The position numbers and the translations under genes are program-made. From the IMG/VR virus record IMGVR_UViG_2713896776_000004: DNA of 7,927 nt; one strand, 5' to 3'. The first letter of the stretch is position 1. Every line of letters begins with the position of its first letter. Below, in pieces: positions 1 to 7,927 of this stretch. The notes beneath the pieces were generated by a model. That model was given only the letters and a program-made list of their open reading frames with translations. It had not been told where the DNA came from and ran no database searches. The stretch is from a virus. Lineage: Duplodnaviria; Heunggongvirae; Uroviricota; Caudoviricetes.

Positions 1-60
1 GACAAAGTCATCGGGCATTATCTGAACATAAAACACTATCAATAAGTTGGAGTCATTACC
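1..60 (+). mobile_element. IS1 terminal fragment: 3' end of insB plus right inverted repeat
   Basis: Frame 1 of nt 1-45 reads DKVIGHYLNIKHYQ*, which I recognise as the InsB C-terminus. The sequence ends ...AATAAGTTGGAGTCATTACC at nt 60, the IS1 terminal inverted repeat. Confidence 0.9.
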
Positions 61-150
61 GGCATCTTCAGTAAATACTGGGTTACTGATAGTGACACCA
101 ATTTCAAAACAACCTTCAGACGTATTAACGTTTGGTAATAACGTTTTCAT
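61..150 (-). pseudogene. dicB: dicB 5' fragment (codons 1-30), truncated by the IS1 end
   Basis: The reverse complement of 61-150 starts at ATG (148-150) and reads MKTLLPNVNTSEGCFEIGVTISNPVFTEDA, matching the DicB N-terminus as I remember it. The frame runs straight into the IS1 terminus at nt 60. A GAGGA Shine-Dalgarno lies at 158-162 on the - strand. Confidence 0.7.
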
Positions 151-167
151 TATCGCGTCCTCAACAA

Positions 168-315
168 TGAATTTTGTGATGCAGTGCCTGGTGCCTCCAG
201 GTGACGTTAACCAGTTAACAATTAACGCCGGATACAGAGAATCCACCCATAACACTGTTTTTGGTTTTAACTGTTCCGCGTGCGCTCAGCCGCATTCACC
301 ACATCACAAAATTCA
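168..315 (-). repeat. 14-bp perfect inverted repeat pair (168-181 and 302-315) flanking the dicF-dicB spacer
   Basis: TGAATTTTGTGATG at 168-181 and CATCACAAAATTCA at 302-315 are exact reverse complements. They sit just 3' of the DicF terminator and just 5' of the dicB Shine-Dalgarno. Confidence 0.5.
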
Positions 316-324
316 CTTTAAAAA

Positions 325-377
325 GGGCGGCAGAGCAGTCACGGAGTAAAACTGATACCGCCAAACGTCACCAGAAA
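325..377 (-). ncRNA. dicF: DicF small regulatory RNA (ftsZ/manX-targeting sRNA of the dicB operon)
   Basis: The reverse complement of 325-377 is TTTCTGGTGACGTTTGGCGGTATCAGTTTTACTCCGTGACTGCTCTGCCGCCC, followed by TTTTT. This matches the 53-nt DicF sequence from memory, including its GC-rich 3' stem and U-tract. Confidence 0.8.
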
Positions 378-402
378 ATTGATAACAGAGGGCGTTGCAG
401 CG

Positions 403-424
403 GGGTTGTCACTTAAGCGTATGG
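403..424 (+). repeat. Left copy of a 22-bp imperfect direct repeat (GGGTTGTCA core); also the half-site of a 9-bp inverted repeat with 431-439
   Basis: GGGTTGTCACTTAAGCGTATGG at 403-424 matches GGGTTGTCAGTTAAACTCGTGG at 1956-1977 at 17 of 22 positions, with an identical 9-mer core. TGACAACCC at 431-439 is the reverse complement of the core. Confidence 0.4.
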
Positions 425-755
425 TCAACCTGACAACCCGGTGTCCTCAACGGGGAAGGAATAACCCCGCCATACTTACCGCCGCGCCATTTCGCGGGTT
501 GCCACAACCGGAAGCGCACGGTCGACGAAAATTTAACGACAGGCTATCTATGAACCAGCTACCTCGCCGTGCGCTTTCGCGTTATGGTCTGACTTTTCAG
601 GGAAATATCCTTTCAGTAAACTGTCAGTGCCGGATGCTCACCCGTGTCCGGCGCACGCACTCCACCTCACCCGTGGAGAACTCCTTAATTACTAACCTTA
701 GCTTTGTTGATTAGCTACTAACGCGGGTAGCCGCGTGTCCACTATTGCTGGGTAA

Positions 756-1685
756 GATCAACCATCTTACGGTGAACTGATCCAGATTGATGGCTCACCT
801 CATGACTGGTTTGAAAATCGAGGCCCCAGATGTACACTGATCGTTTTCATTGATGATGCCGCCAGTGCGTTGATGGCGTTGCGTTTTGTGCCTGCTGAAA
901 CAACCCGGGCTTACATGGAAACCCTCCGGGGTTACCTTAATGATCATGGCGTACCGCTCGCTCTCTACTCTGATAGACACAGTATATTCAGGGTAAATAA
1001 CCCAGAGCGGGAAGGTGAGCTGACCCAGTTCACTCGTGCGATAAAGACACTGGGCATCGAGCCAATCCATGCCAACAGCCCGCAGGCAAAAGGGCGGGTA
1101 GAGCGCGCCAATCAGACACTACAGGACAGGCTGGTCAAAGAAATGCGGCTTCAGAATATCAGTGATATTGAAACAGCAAATGCATGGTTGCCGACTTTTA
1201 TTGAAGCCTATAACAACCGGTTCGCTACGTCGCCTCGTACTACTGATAATGCTCATCTTGATGTGCACCATTCTGAAGAGGAACTGGGTTATATCTTCAG
1301 CCTACAGGCGAAGCGCGTTCTGTCTAAAAATCTCACTTTCCAGTACAAAAGCAGTGCGTTTCAGGTACGCAGTGAGAGCCGGGGATATCGACTTAGGCAT
1401 TCGGTTGTTACTGTATGCGAGAACTTTGACGGTGAAATTAACGTTCTGTATGACGGGAAAGCGCTGGGCTGGGAAAAGTATGTTGATGGCCCGGAGCCTA
1501 TACCACTGGATGATGAAAAGAGTGTCCATGAACGAGTGGATAATGCCCGTATTGATTTACGCTCAAAATACTATGTTAAACCTAAAGCTGACCATCCCTG
1601 GCTTACGCGCCGAACGCAAAGTCATCAGCAAGTTAAGCCCCCGAAGTTACCTAAAAAGAAGCCTGATCCCGATAAAAAAGATTGA
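756..1685 (+). pseudogene. rve (integrase-core) DDE transposase remnant, N-terminal domain missing
   Basis: The open frame from 756 contains IQIDGSPHDWFE...LIVFIDDAAS...LYSDRHSIF...ANSPQAKGRVERANQTLQDRL, a D, D, E integrase-core pattern, and ends in a lysine-rich tail. An in-frame stop at 753-755 leaves no room for an N-terminal DNA-binding domain. The first ATG is at 873. The IS family is not assigned. Confidence 0.6.
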
Positions 1686-1739
1686 AACCAAGATCGATTC
1701 GGTTGAGTGCATATCCATTCATAGGGTAGATTCTTAAGT

Positions 1740-1805
1740 CGCGTTTCTGGTGTTCATTTTCGGGTGGTTTGTTACTTGTTTTACCGGGGATATGCCAGAA
1801 ACGCG
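1740..1805. repeat. 11-bp perfect inverted repeat with a 44-nt spacer, just after the transposase remnant
   Basis: CGCGTTTCTGG at 1740-1750 and CCAGAAACGCG at 1795-1805 are exact reverse complements. Confidence 0.4.
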
Positions 1806-1955
1806 CTGAGTCAGTCTGGGCGGTGCGCGTAATGAGGCGTTATGGTAAATAGCCTATGCTAATGTCCGCTAAGAGCAAGAAGCGGAAGTTGGCAGTTTTG
1901 TGGACTGTCCCCACAAAAGTGACTACAGAAATAGTTGCAATTCATAATTGATCAT

Positions 1956-1977
1956 GGGTTGTCAGTTAAACTCGTGG
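1956..1977 (+). repeat. Right copy of the 22-bp imperfect direct repeat (GGGTTGTCA core)
   Basis: See the 403-424 entry; 17 of 22 positions are identical, including the 9-mer GGGTTGTCA. Confidence 0.4.
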
Positions 1978-2084
1978 CGATTTAAATAGACTAATTGGGA
2001 GTGCGTCCATTACTTATATCTTGTAATGTTAACTATCAGAAATGATACAAAGATAATATGTCTTTAAAGAAAAGGCTGATGGCG

Positions 2085-2107
2085 AAAAGTGGCCCGATGA
2101 GGGCCAC
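2085..2107 (-). terminator. Putative intrinsic terminator downstream of flxA
   Basis: A 7-bp perfect stem GTGGCCC/GGGCCAC with a 5-nt loop lies at 2089-2107. On the - strand it is followed by TTTTCGCC, a short U-run, so it is probably weak. Confidence 0.4.
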
Positions 2108-2121
2108 AATACGGCTGTCAC

Positions 2122-2454
2122 TTAGACGTAAATATCAATGGTGCCAGCGGTATTTGTATCGTCTTTTTTCTCTTCTTTTTTATCAGGCTGAACTGTCGCG
2201 TCTTCATTCTTTTTCTCTGCCTGCTGCCTTAACAACTGCTCCAGTTGAGCCCAGAGGCTTTCAATTTGCTTCTGTACCAATGCAGCCATTTCTTTTTTCT
2301 GCTGTGTCGTCATCCCCTCTTCCGATGAGATTTTCCCAAGCTTTTCAGTCAGCACCTGAATTTGTCTTGTGATTTTGGCTATTTCTGATGTTCCTTCCGG
2401 GGCGGAGTTGTTTGAAATAACGGTTGAGGTATTTCCCTGAATTGTGACAGACAT
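2122..2454 (-). CDS. flxA: FlxA (FliA-regulated prophage protein)
   Basis: The 110-aa translation MSVTIQGNTSTVISNNSAPEGTSEIAKITRQ...TAGTIDIYV matches FlxA of the Qin prophage as I recall it. A GGAG Shine-Dalgarno precedes the ATG and a sigma28 promoter lies upstream. Confidence 0.9.
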   Translation of the reverse strand: MSVTIQGNTSTVISNNSAPEGTSEIAKITRQIQVLTEKLGKISSEEGMTTQQKKEMAALVQKQIESLWAQLEQLLRQQAEKKNEDATVQPDKKEEKKDDTNTAGTIDIYV

Positions 2455-2477
2455 AGATTTCTCCTTTTAAAAAAGCA

Positions 2478-2504
2478 CTATCGGCATGAACAAAAAAATC
2501 TTTA
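2478..2504 (-). promoter_or_regulatory. sigma28 (FliA) class-3 flagellar-type promoter for flxA
   Basis: The - strand reads TAAAGATT, then an 11-nt spacer, then GCCGATAG. The consensus is TAAAGTTT-N11-GCCGATAA. It sits about 25-50 nt upstream of the flxA start. Confidence 0.75.
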
Positions 2505-2656
2505 ATCGTATTTCTTGTGTCATTAATTGTTTGATGTTCAGATTGTTTTCCTCGCGGGCTGGCGCGCCTCAGAAAGTAAAGCTTGTTGACAGGGGTAAAC
2601 GTTCGGCAATAATTTTCTGCCGCATGCGGGTGTTGCATAAAACGTGTTACGTTCCT

Positions 2657-2962
2657 TTATCGACAGGTCAGGTCACCGCTCACCCGCCGACGAGAAAGCA
2701 ACACTGACATGCTAAAGCAAAAAATAGATGAATAAGTTGAGTTGTGCATATGTAGCCTGACCGTCACAAAGTATATGGTGTCTGTACCAGTAAGATGATG
2801 GCCGGACTCTTTAAAAACGAGCTGACCTGCACAATACAGGATGGACTTAGCAATGGCTGCTCCTGGCAGAAAGCGGACAGTGATCACCGTTCTTACGACT
2901 ACTTTCTGACTTCCTTCGTGACTTGCCCTAAGCATGTTGTAGTGCGATACTTGTAATGACAT
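2657..2962 (-). CDS. Doubtful 101-aa ORF, possibly the ydfV-equivalent reading frame
   Basis: This is a 101-aa ORF between flxA and relB, co-directional with flxA. Its length and position fit my memory of ydfV in K-12. The composition is poor (Ser/Arg/Val-rich) and the start codon lies inside the relBE operator, so it may not be expressed. Confidence 0.25.
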   Translation of the reverse strand: MSLQVSHYNMLRASHEGSQKVVVRTVITVRFLPGAAIAKSILYCAGQLVFKESGHHLTGTDTIYFVTVRLHMHNSTYSSIFCFSMSVLLSRRRVSGDLTCR

Positions 2963-2986
2963 TTGTAATTACAAGAGGTGTAAGAC
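2923..2986 (+). promoter_or_regulatory. relBE promoter and operator (relO)
   Basis: Operator repeats TTGTAAT-gacat-TTGTAATTACAA lie at 2951-2974; the last 12 nt are a perfect palindrome. A candidate -35 TTGCCC (2923-2928) and -10 GATACT (2946-2951) are 17 nt apart. The promoter elements are tentative. Confidence 0.6.
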
Positions 2987-3226
2987 ATGGGTAGCATTAA
3001 CCTGCGTATTGACGATGAACTTAAAGCGCGTTCTTACGCCGCGCTTGAAAAAATGGGTGTAACTCCTTCTGAAGCGCTTCGTCTCATGCTCGAGTATATC
3101 GCTGACAATGAACGCTTGCCGTTCAAACAGACACTCCTGAGTGATGAAGATGCTGAACTTGTGGAGATAGTGAAAGAACGGCTTCGTAATCCTAAGCCAG
3201 TACGTGTGACGCTGGATGAACTCTGA
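2987..3226 (+). CDS. relB: RelB antitoxin
   Basis: The 79-aa translation MGSINLRIDDELKARSYAALEKMGVTPSEALRLMLEYIADNERLPFKQTLLSDEDAELVEIVKERLRNPKPVRVTLDEL is near-identical to E. coli RelB from memory. Its stop overlaps the relE start (TGATG). Confidence 0.95.
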   Translation: MGSINLRIDDELKARSYAALEKMGVTPSEALRLMLEYIADNERLPFKQTLLSDEDAELVEIVKERLRNPKPVRVTLDEL

Positions 3227-3513
3227 TGGCGTATTTTCTGGATTTTGACGAGCGGGCACTAAAGGAATGGCGAAAGCTGGGCTCGACGGTACGTGAACAG
3301 TTGAAAAAGAAGCTGGTTGAAGTACTTGAGTCACCCCGGATTGAAGCAAACAAGCTCCGTGGTATGCCTGATTGTTACAAGATTAAGCTCCGGTCTTCAG
3401 GCTATCGCCTTGTATACCAGGTTATAGACGAGAAAGTTGTCGTTTTCGTGATTTCTGTTGGGAAAAGAGAACGCTCGGAAGTATATAGCGAGGCGGTCAA
3501 ACGCATTCTCTGA
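3226..3513 (+). CDS. relE: RelE mRNA-interferase toxin
   Basis: The 95-aa translation MAYFLDFDERALKEWRKLGSTVREQLKKKL...VISVGKRERSEVYSEAVKRIL matches RelE. It is translationally coupled to relB. Confidence 0.95.
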   Translation: MAYFLDFDERALKEWRKLGSTVREQLKKKLVEVLESPRIEANKLRGMPDCYKIKLRSSGYRLVYQVIDEKVVVFVISVGKRERSEVYSEAVKRIL

Positions 3514-3584
3514 ACCAAAGCATGACATCTCTGTTTCGCACCGAAGGTGACACTTCTGCTTTGCGTTGACAGGAGAAGCAGGCT

Positions 3585-3740
3585 ATGAAGCAGCAAAAGG
3601 CGATGTTAATCGCCCTGATCGTCATCTGTTTAACCGTCATAGTGACGGCACTGGTAACGAGGAAAGACCTCTGCGAGGTACGAATCCGAACCGGCCAGAC
3701 GGAGGTCGCTGTCTTCACAGCTTACGAACCTGAGGAGTAA
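3585..3740 (+). CDS. hokD: HokD (RelF), Hok-family small membrane toxin
   Basis: This 51-aa ORF is below the ORF-track size cutoff. It reads MKQQKAMLIALIVICLTVIVTALVTRKDLCEVRIRTGQTEVAVFTAYEPEE, with a hydrophobic helix and the Hok C-terminal motif. An AGGAG lies 11 nt upstream of the ATG. Confidence 0.9.
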   Translation: MKQQKAMLIALIVICLTVIVTALVTRKDLCEVRIRTGQTEVAVFTAYEPEE

Positions 3741-3808
3741 GAGACTCGGCGAGTGAGAAATCCCTCGCCACCTCTGATGTGGCAGGCATCCTCAACGCAC
3801 CCGCACTT

Positions 3809-3840
3809 AACCCGCTTCGGCGGGTTTTTGTTTTTATTTT
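3809..3840 (+). terminator. Intrinsic terminator of the relB-relE-hokD operon
   Basis: The stem is CCCGC-ttcg-GCGGG, followed by TTTTTGTTTTTATTTT. Confidence 0.8.
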
Positions 3841-3956
3841 CAACGCATTTGAAGTTCTGGATGGTGCCGGAATAGAATCAAAAATACTTAAGTAGCGCGC
3901 AGGGATAAGAGGGATGGTCCCTTAAAGGGGAGAGCTAATTATCCGGAAGGATTCTG

Positions 3957-4208
3957 ATGATGAACATCGAAGAACTGCGTAAAATTTTTTGTGAAGATGG
4001 CCTCTATGCTGTGTGCGTTGAAAATGGAAATATTGCTAGTCATTACCGCATTGTGTGTTTGCAAAAAAATGGGGCTGCGTTAATTAATTATGTGGATGCC
4101 CGAGTGACGGACGGATTTATCTTGCGCGACGGTGAGTTTGTCACTTCATTACAGGCATTGAAAGAGATCGGAATAAAAGCTGGCTTTTCTGCTTTTTCAG
4201 AAGAATAA
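3957..4208 (+). CDS. rem: Rem-like prophage protein of unknown function
   Basis: The 83-aa translation MMNIEELRKIFCEDGLYAVCVENGNIASHYRIVCLQKNGAALINYVDARVTDGFILRDGEFVTSLQALKEIGIKAGFSAFSEE fits my memory of Qin Rem. It has a GGAAGG ribosome-binding site, is AT-rich, and sits immediately downstream of hokD as in K-12. Confidence 0.75.
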   Translation: MMNIEELRKIFCEDGLYAVCVENGNIASHYRIVCLQKNGAALINYVDARVTDGFILRDGEFVTSLQALKEIGIKAGFSAFSEE

Positions 4209-4274
4209 ACTCATCTACAATCTTGCGCGGGGCTGAACTCCCGCTGAGTAACACCGTGCCACCGGAGAAAACCG

Positions 4275-4553
4275 ATGGCACGCAACGCAAAATATTACAA
4301 TCATGATAATTCGACCGTTCTTGCCCACACGCACGAGCGGTATTCTCACGCATTTAAGTCAGACTGGTACCAGCATCCCCCATGCACTGAAGAACAGGCC
4401 GAATGGCTCATTCAGTGTTACCGCAGGCGCGGATGCGAGGTTAAAAAAGCCCTTAGCCTCGACTACCGTCACTGGATAATCTCCGTCAGGCTTCCTTACT
4501 CCGAACGCCCACCGCGTCCGTCCCGCACATTCCAGCAACGCATCTGGAGGTAA
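4275..4553 (+). CDS. Hypothetical small Cys/His-containing prophage protein (92 aa), translationally coupled to the DUF968 gene
   Basis: A GGAG lies 7 nt upstream of the ATG at 4275. The translation MARNAKYYNHDNSTVLAHTHERYSHAFKSDWYQHPPCTEEQAEWLIQCYRRRGCEVKK... has no stops. Its TAA (4551-4553) sits between the GGAGG and the GTG start of the next gene. I could not assign a family. Confidence 0.5.
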   Translation: MARNAKYYNHDNSTVLAHTHERYSHAFKSDWYQHPPCTEEQAEWLIQCYRRRGCEVKKALSLDYRHWIISVRLPYSERPPRPSRTFQQRIWR

Positions 4554-4554
4554 C

Positions 4555-5604
4555 GTGCGGGTATTACTTCGACCTGTTCTGGTACCGGAACTCGGGCTGG
4601 TGATCGTTAAGCCGGGCCGTGAACCCATGCCGGTATTCCACAATACCCGGTTACTGGTGGAGCCGGAACCGAAAAGCATGCGTAATCTGCCGTCCGGGGT
4701 CGTTCCTGCCGCTCGCCAGCCGCTGGTGGAAGACAAAACATTGCTGCCGTTTTTCAGTAACGCACGGGTGATTCGTGCTGCTGGTGGTGCTGGTGCATTG
4801 TCTGACTGGCTGTTGCGCCATATTAAATCCTGCCAGTGGCCACACGGCGATTATCATCACAGCGAAACCGTCATTCACCGTTATGGTACCGGCGCAATGG
4901 TGTTGTGCTGGCACTGCGACAACCAGCTGCGTGACCAGACATCCGAATCACTCGAGCAACTAGCTCATCAAAACCTGTCAGCATGGATGATTGACGTCAT
5001 CGGTCACGCAATAAGCGGTACGCAGGAGCGTGAATTATCTCTGGCTGAATTATCCTGGTGGGCGGTCCGCAATCAGGTGGCGGACGCGCTACCGGAAGCG
5101 GTATTACGTCGTTCGCTGGGGTTGCGTGCGGAAAAAATCCGCTCAATGTACCGTGAAAGCGACATCGTACCGGGAGAGCAGACCGCCACCAGCATACTGA
5201 AACAGCGCACAAAAAATCTTGCACCGTTGCCTCACGCCCACCAGCAACAAAACCCATCACAAGAAAAGACGGTGGTAAGCATCACCGTTGATCCAGAGTC
5301 TCCGGAATCTTTCATGAAGCTGCCTAAACGTCACCGTTGGGTTAAGGAGAAATACACACGCTGGGTTAAGACACAGCCGTGTGCTTGCTGCGGTATGCCA
5401 GCCGACGATCCGCATCATCTGATTGGTCACGGGCAGGGCGGAATGGGAACCAAAGCACATGATCTCTTTGTGTTGCCTTTGTGCAGAAAGCATCACGACG
5501 AGTTGCATACGGATACCGTGGCATTTGAAGAGAAGTATGGCTCCCAACTGGAGCTGATTTTTCGATTTATCGATCGCGCGCTGGCAATTGGTGTGCTGGC
5601 CTAA
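4555..5604 (+). CDS. ydfU: DUF968-family prophage protein with a C-terminal HNH-like motif (YdfU-like)
   Basis: The 349-aa ORF has a GTG start with GGAGG 4 nt upstream. The C-terminus contains CACCG...[10 protein letters not shown]...[10 protein letters not shown] (a Cys pair, His-His and H-x3-H), typical of a beta-beta-alpha-metal HNH fold. A second Cys/His cluster ([11 protein letters not shown]...LCWHCDN) lies near residues 93-122. The size and position after rem match K-12 ydfU. Confidence 0.8.
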
Positions 5605-5621
5605 TTTTGTGGAGTAAGTTG

Positions 5622-5999
5622 ATGCGTGATATTCAGATGGTTCTTGAGCGTTGGGGGGCATGGGCTGCTAATAATCATGAAGATGTGACCTGGTCGTCCA
5701 TTGCCGCCGGTTTTAAGGGATTAATTCCTTCAAAAGTAAGATCTCGTCCGCAATGCTGTGACGATGACGCGATGATCATTTGTGAATGTATGGCTCGCCT
5801 GAAAAAAAACAACAGCGATTTACATGATTTATTGGTGGACTATTATGTCGGCGGCATGACTTTTATGGCGCTTGCACGTAAGCATGGGCGATCTGATTGT
5901 TGGGTTGGCAGGATGCTCCAGAAAGCTGAGGGCGTAGTGGAGGGCATGCTGATGGTGTTGGATCTCCGATTGGAGATGGATGCTGATTGTTCGAAATAA
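5622..5999 (+). CDS. Late-gene antiterminator Q (small phage-21/QuuD-like class)
   Basis: ATG at 5622 with GGAG 6 nt upstream gives 125 aa. The translation [34 protein letters not shown]...[37 protein letters not shown]... matches my memory of the DLP12 QuuD / phage 21 Q family. The ORF-track start at 5607 is a TTG that I consider less likely. Confidence 0.75.
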
Positions 6000-6154: not shown

Positions 6155-6679
6155 TTATTGTTTAACCCATAATAGTTCATTGACATTGAATCCCAACTTT
6201 TGAGCGGTACGCACATAGTCTGCTTTTACATTATCTGGAATAGTTTGGGTCCTTGCCAGAATCCATAGGTATTCTCTGTTCGGACCACTGACAAGAGCAT
6301 ACTTATACTCATCATCCAGTTTGATTACATTATAGCCACCATAGAAGGGGCCAAAAAACGAAACTTTCAACGCTGCAGTTTTAGTATCTCCAGTAAAGTA
6401 TGCTTTACCTTCGCTCTCGCTCCATTTGTTTTTCGTTGGATCGTATCCACGGTTAAGTACGCGAATCCCTCCGTCGTTCCGTTTTTCATAAGTAGCGCTG
6501 ACCTGTTCCAGACCACGTTCGAACCAGTTCTCGAGGCGAGCTATTTCATACCATTTTCCGAGGTAGCGGTTGGCGTCAAAATTTGTAATCGGCTGCACAC
6601 CTTTAGGTGGTGTCGGGGCCTTACATGCTATAAGAGTGAAAGAGAGTGCAATGCCAGTCAACACAGGCCATAACTTCAT
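6155..6679 (-). CDS. Blc-family bacterial lipocalin, predicted outer-membrane lipoprotein
   Basis: The 174-aa translation has a signal peptide with lipobox LIAC (Cys19). Motifs NFDANRYLGKWYEIARLENWFERGLEQVSATY and GKAYFTGDTKTAALKVSFFGPFYGGYNVIKLD...YLWILARTQTI align with E. coli Blc at roughly half of positions, so it is divergent. The gene is AT-rich. Confidence 0.85.
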   Translation of the reverse strand: MKLWPVLTGIALSFTLIACKAPTPPKGVQPITNFDANRYLGKWYEIARLENWFERGLEQVSATYEKRNDGGIRVLNRGYDPTKNKWSESEGKAYFTGDTKTAALKVSFFGPFYGGYNVIKLDDEYKYALVSGPNREYLWILARTQTIPDNVKADYVRTAQKLGFNVNELLWVKQ

Positions 6680-6871
6680 AATAAATCCTGTACTTTTGAT
6701 AGTTGAGAGTAAGTATGAAAGATAGATGAGTACGACCGATCACTTAAAGAACTTTCCTACTATATTAGGAATAGTCAATAACAGAAAAATTGTCAGTGAT
6801 GAAGCCAGAAAGGCAATTTAGTCCGTGCACTACAAAGTTTATGTGTTAATGAATTAGTCAAGGGGGAGGAA

Positions 6872-7831
6872 ATGATAAAAAAACCTGTGATTGGGATCAG
6901 CGGTTGTTTGGGCGGTTCTGCTGTTCGTTTTGATGGTGGTCACAAAAGAGATGACTTTTTAATGGACAAATTAGTGGAATGGGTAACATTCAGACCAGTA
7001 TGTCCGGAAATGGCTATAGGGCTGCCAGTTCCGCGTCCTGCTCTACGACTTGTGCGCTCGAAGCAAGGAAATATACGGATGTGTTTCAGCCACGACCAGA
7101 ATGAGGATGTGACAGAGAGAATGACAGAGTTTAGTCGTTCTTATATGGACAAATTAAAGGATGTATCGGGGTTTGTGGTTTGTGCTAAATCTCCCAGCTG
7201 TGGCATGGAGCGCGTGCGTGTCTATGATGAAAATGGTAATCGAGGTCGTAAAGATGGAGTGGGACTATTTACGAGCACTTTGATGGAAAAGTTTTCCTGG
7301 CTACCGGTTGAAGAGGATGGGCGATTACATGATCCAGTGCTTCGTGAGAATTTTATTGAAAGAGTTTTTGCTTTGCATGAGCTCAATCACCTTTACAAGG
7401 AGAAATTATCAAGAAGAGAGTTATTAGCTTTTCATAGTCGTTATAAGCTTCAGTTGTTGGCGCATAGCCAGGCAGGCTATAAAGATATGGGACCATTTGT
7501 GGCTGCAATACACGAGTGGGCGGACCTTGAATCATACTTTGAGGTGTATCGTGATAATCTGATGGCGATTCTCAGAAAACCAGCATCACGTAAAAATCAC
7601 ACGAATGTGCTGATGCATATACAGGGGTATTTTAGTAATTACTTAAGTACACGCCAGCGTAAAGAGTTGAGCGAGGTTATACTTAACTATCGCTTTGGCA
7701 CATTGCCTCTTCTTGCGCCGTTGACTCTGCTGAAGCATTATCTGGGTGAGTATCCTAATGATTACTTGCTTACACAGAATTACTTCGATCCCTATCCGGA
7801 AGAACTGGCTCTAAGACTGATGGTGAATTAA
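6872..7831 (+). CDS. DUF523 (TudS-like Fe-S domain) - DUF1722 (YbgA-like) fusion protein
   Basis: A strong Shine-Dalgarno GGGGGAGG precedes the ATG at 6872. The 319-aa protein begins MIKKPVIGISGCLGGSAVRFDGGHKRDDF, with conserved Cys at 12, 44 (PVCPEM) and 104/110 (CAKSPSCG). The C-terminal half resembles YbgA/DUF1722. The gene is AT-rich. Confidence 0.8.
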   Translation: MIKKPVIGISGCLGGSAVRFDGGHKRDDFLMDKLVEWVTFRPVCPEMAIGLPVPRPALRLVRSKQGNIRMCFSHDQNEDVTERMTEFSRSYMDKLKDVSGFVVCAKSPSCGMERVRVYDENGNRGRKDGVGLFTSTLMEKFSWLPVEEDGRLHDPVLRENFIERVFALHELNHLYKEKLSRRELLAFHSRYKLQLLAHSQAGYKDMGPFVAAIHEWADLESYFEVYRDNLMAILRKPASRKNHTNVLMHIQGYFSNYLSTRQRKELSEVILNYRFGTLPLLAPLTLLKHYLGEYPNDYLLTQNYFDPYPEELALRLMVN

Positions 7832-7867: not shown

Positions 7868-7927
7868 GGTAATGACTCCAACTTATTGATAGTGTTTTAT
7901 GTTCAGATAATGCCCGATGACTTTGTC
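7868..7927 (-). mobile_element. IS1 terminal fragment (right inverted repeat end), inverted relative to the copy at 1-60
   Basis: GGTAATGACTCCAACTTATTGATAG... at 7868-7927 is the exact reverse complement of nt 1-60. Confidence 0.9.

Follow-up and report, generated by a model that had tools for sequence, protein, structure and literature searches.

A probable decay scar with IS3 and ISEsa1-type remnants between dicF and flxA of a Qin-type prophage

ISEsa1 from Cronobacter sakazakii, a member of the IS1202 family (formerly the IS1202 group of ISNCY), has a length of 1609 bp, encodes a 439-aa transposase and has no detected target duplication; its terminal inverted repeat is given in ISfinder as 15/22 (PMC10132070). 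The ISEsa1 subgroup is characterized by a transposase of about 390-510 aa with an N-terminal HTH and a DDE (rve) core, by imperfect terminal inverted repeats of about 22-29 bp and by the lack of a detectable target duplication, whereas the other IS1202 subgroups generate duplications of 3-6, 15-18 or 24-29 bp. A relative from Hahella (62% identical) has the properties of a classical IS; it is 1449 bp long and possesses clear terminal inverted repeats as well as 15-17-bp duplications, with no common target in 10 copies. The element of which a part lies between dicF and flxA in the DNA studied here resembles ISEsa1, which is known to us by its published description, with regard to the N-terminal HTH and rve_3 DDE core of its transposase, its PGAP name, its size and the absence of a target duplication. 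It differs in that the left end and the HTH are missing here and the enterobacterial copies have no recognisable right-end inverted repeat.

The other system for comparison is the Qin prophage of E. coli K-12. The window, by which we mean the whole stretch of 7,927 nucleotides that was analysed, is collinear with K-12 Qin over dicB, dicF, ydfW, flxA, relBE, hokD, rem and ydfU, with 96-99.6% identity. In contrast to K-12, however, it lacks ydfX, dicC, dicA, ydfA, ydfB and nearly all of ydfC, and its dicB is cut by IS1. There are also differences among the antiterminator and downstream genes, where the window has a Q-family protein, a lipocalin gene and a YbgA-family gene as opposed to ydfT and cspF/cspB in K-12.

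We consider the interval 378-2084 to be, with a probability of roughly 0.9, an ordinary decay scar in a Qin-type lambdoid cryptic prophage, made up of an IS3-marked deletion, an ISEsa1-type remnant and two 22-mers that resemble each other by chance. It is an already annotated, IS-scarred deletion variant of Qin. The finding itself is of little weight; for the strain, it means a Qin prophage without the DicA/DicC switch and without the promoter of the dicB operon.

Composition of the interval between dicF and flxA

An alignment with the dic region of K-12 MG1655 Qin, which had been proposed together with the original prediction, resulted in two collinear blocks with 1671 bp of K-12 DNA missing between them. 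Window positions 61-729 correspond to K-12 1649698-1649030 (99.6% identity), whereas positions 1501-5604 correspond to K-12 1647358-1643255 (96.5% identity), a block that starts inside ydfW and runs through flxA, relBE, hokD, rem and ydfU. The K-12 segment missing in between (1647359-1649029) comprises ydfX-dicC-dicA-ydfA-ydfB and most of ydfC, and there is no DicA-like ORF among the ORFs of the window. The supposed absence of dicA, dicC and ydfA-C is therefore real. Vice versa, the 771 bp at window positions 730-1500 have no counterpart in K-12; they consist of an IS3 stub and the interior of a transposase gene. The features of this part of the window are the following:

1-60, plus strand: end of IS1 (terminal 60 nt), which cuts dicB; identical to the last 60 nt of the annotated IS1A in L094 (2441-2500)
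61-150, minus strand: dicB', only the first 30 codons, truncated by IS1; assigned by the K-12 alignment (K-12 dicB is 1649609-1649797)
325-376, minus strand: intact gene of the small RNA DicF; Rfam RF00039, 76.7 bits at a threshold of 48, model positions 1-52 of 52
377-717, minus strand: spacer between ydfC and dicF, native Qin DNA and leader of the dicF precursor; 99.6% identical to K-12
718-729, minus strand: 3' end of ydfC, 12 nt (3 codons and the stop), left edge of the deletion; K-12 homology stops at 729
730-760, minus strand: IS3 stub, terminal inverted repeat of 31 nt (33 nt with the ambiguous TA at 728-729); 33/33 match to the IS3 end
761-1685, plus strand: pseudogene of an ISEsa1-like (IS1202 family/ISNCY) transposase, codons 140-446 and the stop; 94% identity to P0001 (446 aa)
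1536-1685, plus strand: 'ydfW' stretch, the last 49 transposase codons in frame; annotated in L001 and K-12, aligns to the C-terminus of the full-length transposase
1686-1888, plus strand: 3' non-coding part and right terminus of the IS (end within 1886-1890); placed by the loss of homology in independent copies
1889-2084, no strand: native Qin DNA from the IS end to the flxA terminator; common to K-12, holds the right 22-mer
2085-2107, minus strand: terminator-like hairpin of flxA, 7 G+C-rich pairs followed by UUUU; -17.3 kcal/mol, z-score -2.83

The real junctions in this region are located at 729/730, at 760/761 and at approximately 1886-1890. The interval 378-2084 is thus not one insert but three unrelated pieces, namely a native Qin spacer, the IS3 stub, and the IS remnant together with its native flank. 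The left junction cuts ydfC; the K-12 ydfC end (1649041) corresponds to window position 718. Only one complete genome, that of EC09, has the same arrangement of 378-2084 (100% coverage, 99.9% identity), and PGAP annotates a transposase pseudogene and ydfW there. The junction of IS1 and dicB at the left edge of the window occurs in no complete E. coli genome; the exact reverse complement of the IS1 piece at 1-60 closes the window at 7868-7927, the terminal inverted identity amounting to exactly 60 nt.

The sequence at 728-760 (TAGCCGCGTGTCCACTATTGCTGGGTAAGATCA) shows 100% identity to the final 33 nt of an IS3 that occupies two other sites of the same region (in L005 and L006), with a 3-bp target duplication at both. 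These 33 nt represent a true IS3 terminus: in L005, the inserted block has a length of 1258 bp, and positions 4112-4114 of L004, the corresponding locus of strain CFSAN064036, are duplicated on either side of it. The TA at 728-729 can be assigned to either ydfC or IS3, and on the other side homology to L004 begins exactly at window position 761 (L004 5001). The similarity to IS3 consists in the complete identity to its outer end, which lies next to the start of the IS3 transposase. In contrast to a complete element with two ends and orfA/orfB, only the 31-33 nt of the terminal repeat are present, and there is neither a transposase gene nor a second end nor a target duplication.

Significance of the two 22-mers

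According to the original prediction, the interval is bounded by 22-bp imperfect direct repeats, which could be element ends, att-like cores or a repeated operator. The 22-mers GGGTTGTCACTTAAGCGTATGG (403-424) and GGGTTGTCAGTTAAACTCGTGG (1956-1977) indeed agree at 17 of 22 positions and share a 9-nt core. However, they do not bound the interval, as the junctions lie elsewhere: the left 22-mer is 306 bp away from the nearest one (729/730) and the right 22-mer is located 66-70 bp outside of the IS end. Both belong to DNA common to K-12, where they flank an intact dicA-dicC region. Furthermore, in 21% of 100 dinucleotide-preserving shuffles of 378-2084, one or more direct 22-mer pairs reach a match of 17 positions or better. 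The observed region contains two such pairs in comparison to a shuffle mean of 0.25, which is a mild excess at most. A search for the motif at the ends of related elements had also been suggested, and independent copies of the IS do not carry it. Because of the shared K-12 DNA, the distance from the junctions and the chance-level match, an interpretation of the 22-mers as element ends, att cores or a demonstrable operator does not hold, and the pair is a chance resemblance. This example argues for caution, as short imperfect repeats beside a pseudogene should be subjected to a chance test and a comparison with reference genomes before they are read as element ends.

It is improbable, but more credible than the other alternatives, that GGGTTGTCA is functional in a way unrelated to any IS. 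The hairpin GGGTTGTCA(18 nt)TGACAACCC might then be a determinant of processing or stability of the dicF precursor, or a protein-binding site with a repeat near flxA. On the plus strand, the core of the left 22-mer forms one arm of a predicted hairpin with a 9-bp stem at 403-438 (403-411 with 430-438), approximately 26 nt upstream of DicF, and this hairpin is predicted in both the MFE and the centroid fold. Moreover, the left region is 99.6% conserved with K-12 and a third, weaker copy of the motif is found at 2113-2130. On the other hand, the fold of the whole leader has a z-score of only -1.28, the right copy has no inverted partner, and the pair of motifs does not exceed chance level. As E. 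coli genomes hardly differ over this entire block, the conservation of the left region is uninformative; there is no covariation in the sequences either. We therefore keep to chance resemblance as the explanation for the 22-mers.

The transposase remnant and the history of the deletion

The plus-strand frame at 756-1685 is open over 309 codons and 94% identical to residues 139-446 of ISNCY family transposases with 446-447 aa. In the full-length protein, Pfam detects HTH domains (HTH_28/23/32/29) only within residues 9-116 and rve_3 at residues 238-291. The view that this is the remnant of a DDE transposase without its N-terminal domain is therefore correct, as the HTH part (approximately residues 9-116) is missing. 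The window retains the C-terminal 307 of the 446 codons, while the start codon and the N-terminal HTH domains are lost. The rve_3 match of the fragment reaches 24.4 bits as compared to a Pfam cut-off of 26.5, and the first in-frame start, a TTG at 870, lies past the putative first catalytic D (identified by reading of the sequence). For the same DNA in E. coli genomes, the PGAP label is 'IS1202-like element ISEsa1 family transposase', pseudogene, followed by 'ydfW', and an intact copy of 446 codons is present at L004 4585-5925. Since only residues 140-446 are kept and the HTH part is absent, the window appears to hold a fragment of a member of the ISEsa1 subgroup and not a functional member.

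A full enterobacterial copy of the IS has about 1.62 kb and codes for a transposase of 446 aa. Its right end could be placed at window positions 1886-1890, where homology is lost in three different contexts, i.e. at the flxA side in Qin, at the ncrY side on plasmids (L007-L012) and in a remnant on a Shigella plasmid (L013). The left terminus of full-length copies is TGTTAACACCAAGCTGTAATGTCCCC, which matches the terminal repeat of the Hahella relative and is absent from the window. Only the right 1.13 kb of the IS are present in the window, the left end being deleted. A comparison of the two ends of the full IS (L004, L007) for inverted repeats revealed only chance matches of 11-15 nt, so in the enterobacterial copies the right terminus has no inverted match to the left terminus of the kind described for the ISEsa1 subgroup. 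In agreement with this subgroup, no target duplication flanks any of about 15 enterobacterial copies. The last approximately 165 nt of the IS (1727-1889) had been taken for a hok leader by eye and on the basis of a MAFFT alignment; they have no Rfam match at E ≤ 1, a 40-aa ORF listed in some records as DUF5431 or 'mobilization protein' belongs to no Pfam or NCBIfam family, and this candidate was discarded. Two loci were examined as possible empty sites: strain KW21 (L093) has only a variant of the last approximately 28 nt of the IS beside unrelated DNA, and the locus of EH10-18-47 (L094) is cut by IS1; neither of them is informative in this respect.

The K-12 gene ydfW is the same DNA as window 1536-1685 and is nothing but the tail of the IS transposase. 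Its upstream neighbour in K-12 is a ydaT-like fragment (ydfX) to which it was fused, whereas in the window 258 more codons of the transposase gene still precede it. We take ydfW/ydfX to be what was formerly called the intK pseudogene.

One could assume that the transposase fragment is a domesticated and expressed gene, giving rise to a 271-aa protein from the TTG at 870 or to YdfW, a peptide of 49 aa. In favour of this, the frame is open over its 309 codons, ydfW is annotated as a protein in K-12, and the transposase interior (761-1500) is found at ≥ 99% identity in 793 of 5426 complete E. coli genomes, usually as a single copy. We regard this as very unlikely. The near-identity reflects the recent common ancestry of the whole prophage block and not selection, and the fragment is devoid of any DNA-binding HTH domain; a product starting at 870 would in addition lack the putative first catalytic D of the DDE triad. 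The point of truncation also varies by lineage, as seen from K-12, the window, strain S3 and the copies interrupted by IS3, and the plus-strand promoter-like site at 811-838 is one of 4 such sites at an expectation of 3.8. A dead fragment is thus the reading of 761-1685 on which the following is based.

In the prophage of CFSAN064036 (L004), the genes are arranged in the order cI-like (dicA-like), cro (dicC-like), ydaT, replication genes, DUF977, a methyltransferase pseudogene, the IS, flxA, relBE and hokD. The arrangement in K-12 equals that of L004 minus positions 917-5740, with a fragment of ydaT (ydfX) fused to the transposase tail (ydfW). K-12 keeps the same right end of the IS together with 185 nt from the 3' end of the transposase gene, joined to the flxA side at the same nucleotide. 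Therefore, the IS predates both lineages. As the window and K-12 represent different deletions from an L004-like form, the IS is older than either of them and is no insert by which dicA was displaced. In other words, the IS is ancestral, and K-12 and the window are independent deletion derivatives of a fuller prophage such as that of L004. A conserved ancestral segment is what the original prediction had itself named as evidence against an insert, and besides the 793 genomes with the transposase interior, window 1600-2121 (IS end and flank) is present at ≥ 99% identity in 1143 of 5426 complete E. coli genomes including K-12 strains, again usually as a single copy.

Hardly anything is left of the proposal that a degenerate IS-like insert replaced dicA and dicC between dicF and flxA, with the 22-bp repeats as its ends, target duplication or att-like cores: the repeats with their 9-nt core do lie on either side of the transposase ORF and the dicA region is absent, but in K-12 the same repeats stand on both sides of an intact dicA-dicC, neither is placed at a junction, the full-length IS starts with TGTTAACACCAAGCTGTAATGTCCCC and makes no target duplication (PMC10132070), and an equal pair arises in about a fifth of the shuffles. 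What stands of the original prediction is the 5'-truncated rve/DDE transposase, the missing dic block with its immunity and promoter region and the 17/22 match; the single insert relative to K-12 and the repeats as its bounding ends had to be given up.

Under the reading as a deletion derivative, the ancestor would have resembled the L004 prophage, with dicB-dicF-ydfCBA-dicA on one side of the immunity region and dicC(cro)-ydaT-replication genes, a hok/sok leader, a complete 1.6-kb ISEsa1-like IS and flxA-relBE-hokD on the other. In the lineage of the window, an IS3 would have come to adjoin the ISEsa1-like transposase gene at codon 139. A deletion that followed would have had one end within this IS3, 31-33 bp from its border, and the other within ydfC, 12 bp from the 3' end of the gene; relative to L004, the loss reaches position 5000, with the IS3 stub at the joint. 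It would have removed about 5.7 kb, among them ydfC, ydfB, ydfA, dicA, dicC, the promoter of the dicB operon, the replication genes, the hok leader and transposase codons 1-139. The DNA that is left consists of the native dicF leader (377-729), the IS3 repeat (730-760), the dead remainder of the transposase gene together with the right end of the IS (761 to approximately 1888) and the native flank up to flxA. K-12 Qin originated from the same kind of ancestor by the other deletion (L004 917-5740), in which dicA and dicC were kept. While the underlying sequences are observed, we infer the order of the IS3 events, including the intermediate, since a complete IS3 placed precisely at 760/761 was encountered in no genome. 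In strain S3 (L002), a different IS3-family element has its end 1 bp from the junction of the window, and 51 nt more of ydfC are kept. This arrangement counts against a simple linear history, which leaves S3 unexplained.

Consequences for dicF and insertions at hok start codons

Control of the dicB operon by DicA requires the dicA gene and the promoter/operator of the operon upstream of ydfA-ydfB-ydfC-dicF-dicB. Neither is found in the window, and the suspected loss of the repressor and promoter region thus applies to the DicA/DicC immunity genes as well as to the dicB-operon promoter. Judged from its sequence, dicF itself is intact but is cut off from the DicA-controlled promoter. It had been proposed that expression of dicF might depend on a promoter inside the inserted DNA; the consensus scan detected no promoter-like site on the dicF strand there. 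All 4 promoter-like sites within 1-2600 are located on the plus strand (3.8 expected), and no sigma-70-like site was found on the minus strand of this region, although the scan is a crude one that leaves room for weak or non-sigma-70 promoters and for read-through. Transcripts coming from flxA would face three obstacles on their way to dicF, namely the terminator-like hairpin of flxA at 2089-2107, which lies upstream of the IS remnant on the dicF strand, and two further terminator-like sites of the minus strand at 1371-1355 and 924-907. With dicF parted from the DicA-controlled promoter and IS1 truncating dicB, the cell-division-inhibition module (DicF/DicB) is most likely silent, and DicF and DicB are probably not inducible in this strain.

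The only point of wider interest is a side observation, which concerns the position of ISEsa1-type elements exactly at hok start codons in repeated cases. The IS of L004, like many copies from other genera, begins right after the Shine-Dalgarno sequence and the AT(G) of a hok leader. In at least six hok/sok leaders that clearly differ from one another, ...GGAGAAG(A/C)AGGC(C/T)AT(G) is followed by the first base of an intact IS copy. Full-length matches to sok (Rfam RF01794, 81-104 bits) end at most 1 nt from the IS junction in L004/L025, L015, L019/L031, L022, L033 and L048. The hok leaders diverge from each other by about 30%, as against an identity of 77-100% among the IS copies, and independent targeting is therefore likelier than one inherited event. 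None of these loci has a Hok coding sequence on the right side of the IS: an HMM built from Hok sequences and the HokD of the window was searched against the six-frame translations of 19 loci and of window 1-2600, and its only matches were the genuine hokD of L025 and, in L029, a reversed hok. Three different leaders (L016, L019 and L022) are combined with one and the same right flank, which hints at intramolecular events that deleted the toxin gene.

The literature search yielded no paper that connects hok with IS of the ISEsa1/ISNCY type, and hok is not mentioned in the paper on the IS1202 family (PMC10132070). We tentatively suggest, at slightly less than even odds, that this IS lineage targets the start codon of hok-family toxin genes in a site-specific manner and that the Qin copy, the hok leader of which is deleted from the present window, goes back to one such event. 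If this is true, the ISEsa1 subgroup would gain a defined target, comparable to the dif sites used by relatives of ISAjo2, and the IS would be linked to the disarming of type I toxins.

Insertion at hok/sok leaders

In loci outside the window, the left start of intact ISEsa1-like IS copies coincides exactly with the start codon of a hok/sok leader. The junctions, each with an Rfam sok (RF01794) assignment, are the following.

L004 (locus of strain CFSAN064036), 4340-4511: hok/sok leader-IS junction
L015, L019, L022, L025, L031, L033 and L048 (IS copies in other loci), at ~2256-2428: hok/sok leader-IS junctions

At least six diverged leaders give a full-length match to RF01794 in Rfam that ends no more than 1 nt from the IS junction. 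On the other side of the IS no Hok coding sequence was detected in these loci, and their IS copies show no target duplication. The hok start codon may represent a target specificity that is so far undescribed for this ISEsa1-like subgroup. The portion of the IS kept in the window is the right part only (761-1888).

The hokD locus of the window itself (3400-3740) has no sok match at the Rfam gathering threshold, DicF being the sole Rfam family across the entire window. The second hok leader, which is the one struck by the IS in L004, reaches 104 bits to Rfam sok. This agrees with the loss of upstream regulatory elements in hokD/relF. In Kluyvera sp. STS39-E, an Rfam match to the Hfq-binding sRNA isrO (58.8 bits; L026 2337-2450, - strand) overlaps the left junction of the IS copy.

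IS3-family elements in and beside the ISEsa1-like element

Independent IS3 insertions are found in or beside the same ISEsa1-like element at several positions in different E. coli strains, and strain S3 carries a second, different IS3-family element.

L005, 2776-4033: complete IS3 copy
L006, ~2778-4033: complete IS3 copy
H5-H8 and H13 (E. coli matches to the window interval): further cases
L004, 4112-4114 and ~4354-4358: IS3 insertion sites
position corresponding to window 761-2084: at least one IS3 insertion site in these other strains
L002 (strain S3), 6353-7664: different IS3-family element between ydfC and the transposase remnant, with ends TGTAGTGG...

The end of the S3 element and that of the IS3 stub in the window (compared over 729-761) lie 1 bp apart, at L004 5000 versus 5001, and strain S3 retains 51 nt more of ydfC than the window does. 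Two different IS3-family elements that end within 1 bp of each other may point to a hot spot or to the targeting of IS ends.

IS1 ends and genes downstream of the Q antiterminator gene

The outer parts of the window comprise the following features.

1-60 and 7868-7927: two oppositely oriented IS1 ends that bound the window, each the exact reverse complement of the other over 60 nt
5607-5999: Q antiterminator gene
6155-6679, - strand: lipocalin (Blc-like) gene
6872-7831, + strand: YbgA-family (DUF1722) gene

One IS1 end cuts dicB after codon 30, and the other follows the YbgA-family gene at a distance of 36 nt. Judging by their inner 9-mers, the two ends share no target duplication, and the IS1-dicB junction is absent from all complete E. 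coli genomes searched. These ends may stem from an IS1-mediated inversion or from a Shigella-like source.

The lipocalin and YbgA-family genes directly follow the Q antiterminator gene and look like prophage cargo ('moron') genes. Their arrangement is identical in EC09 and CFSAN064036, whereas K-12 Qin possesses ydfT, cspF and cspB in their place.

A third motif copy and an IS end beside flxA

At 2113-2130 the motif recurs a third time in weaker form, GGCTGTCACTTAGACGTA, overlapping the flxA stop codon; the identity of this copy to 404-421 is 83% and it is probably due to chance. Also beside flxA, the final ~28 nt of the right end of the IS survive in variant form, ATGTCTGTTATGAGCAAGAAGCGGAAGT, in E. 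coli strain KW21 (L093 2500-2530). The variant shows ~4 mismatches, concentrated in the first 14 nt, and the adjoining 230 nt are ~99% identical. Unrelated DNA abuts it, close to paoD and a tRNA fragment.
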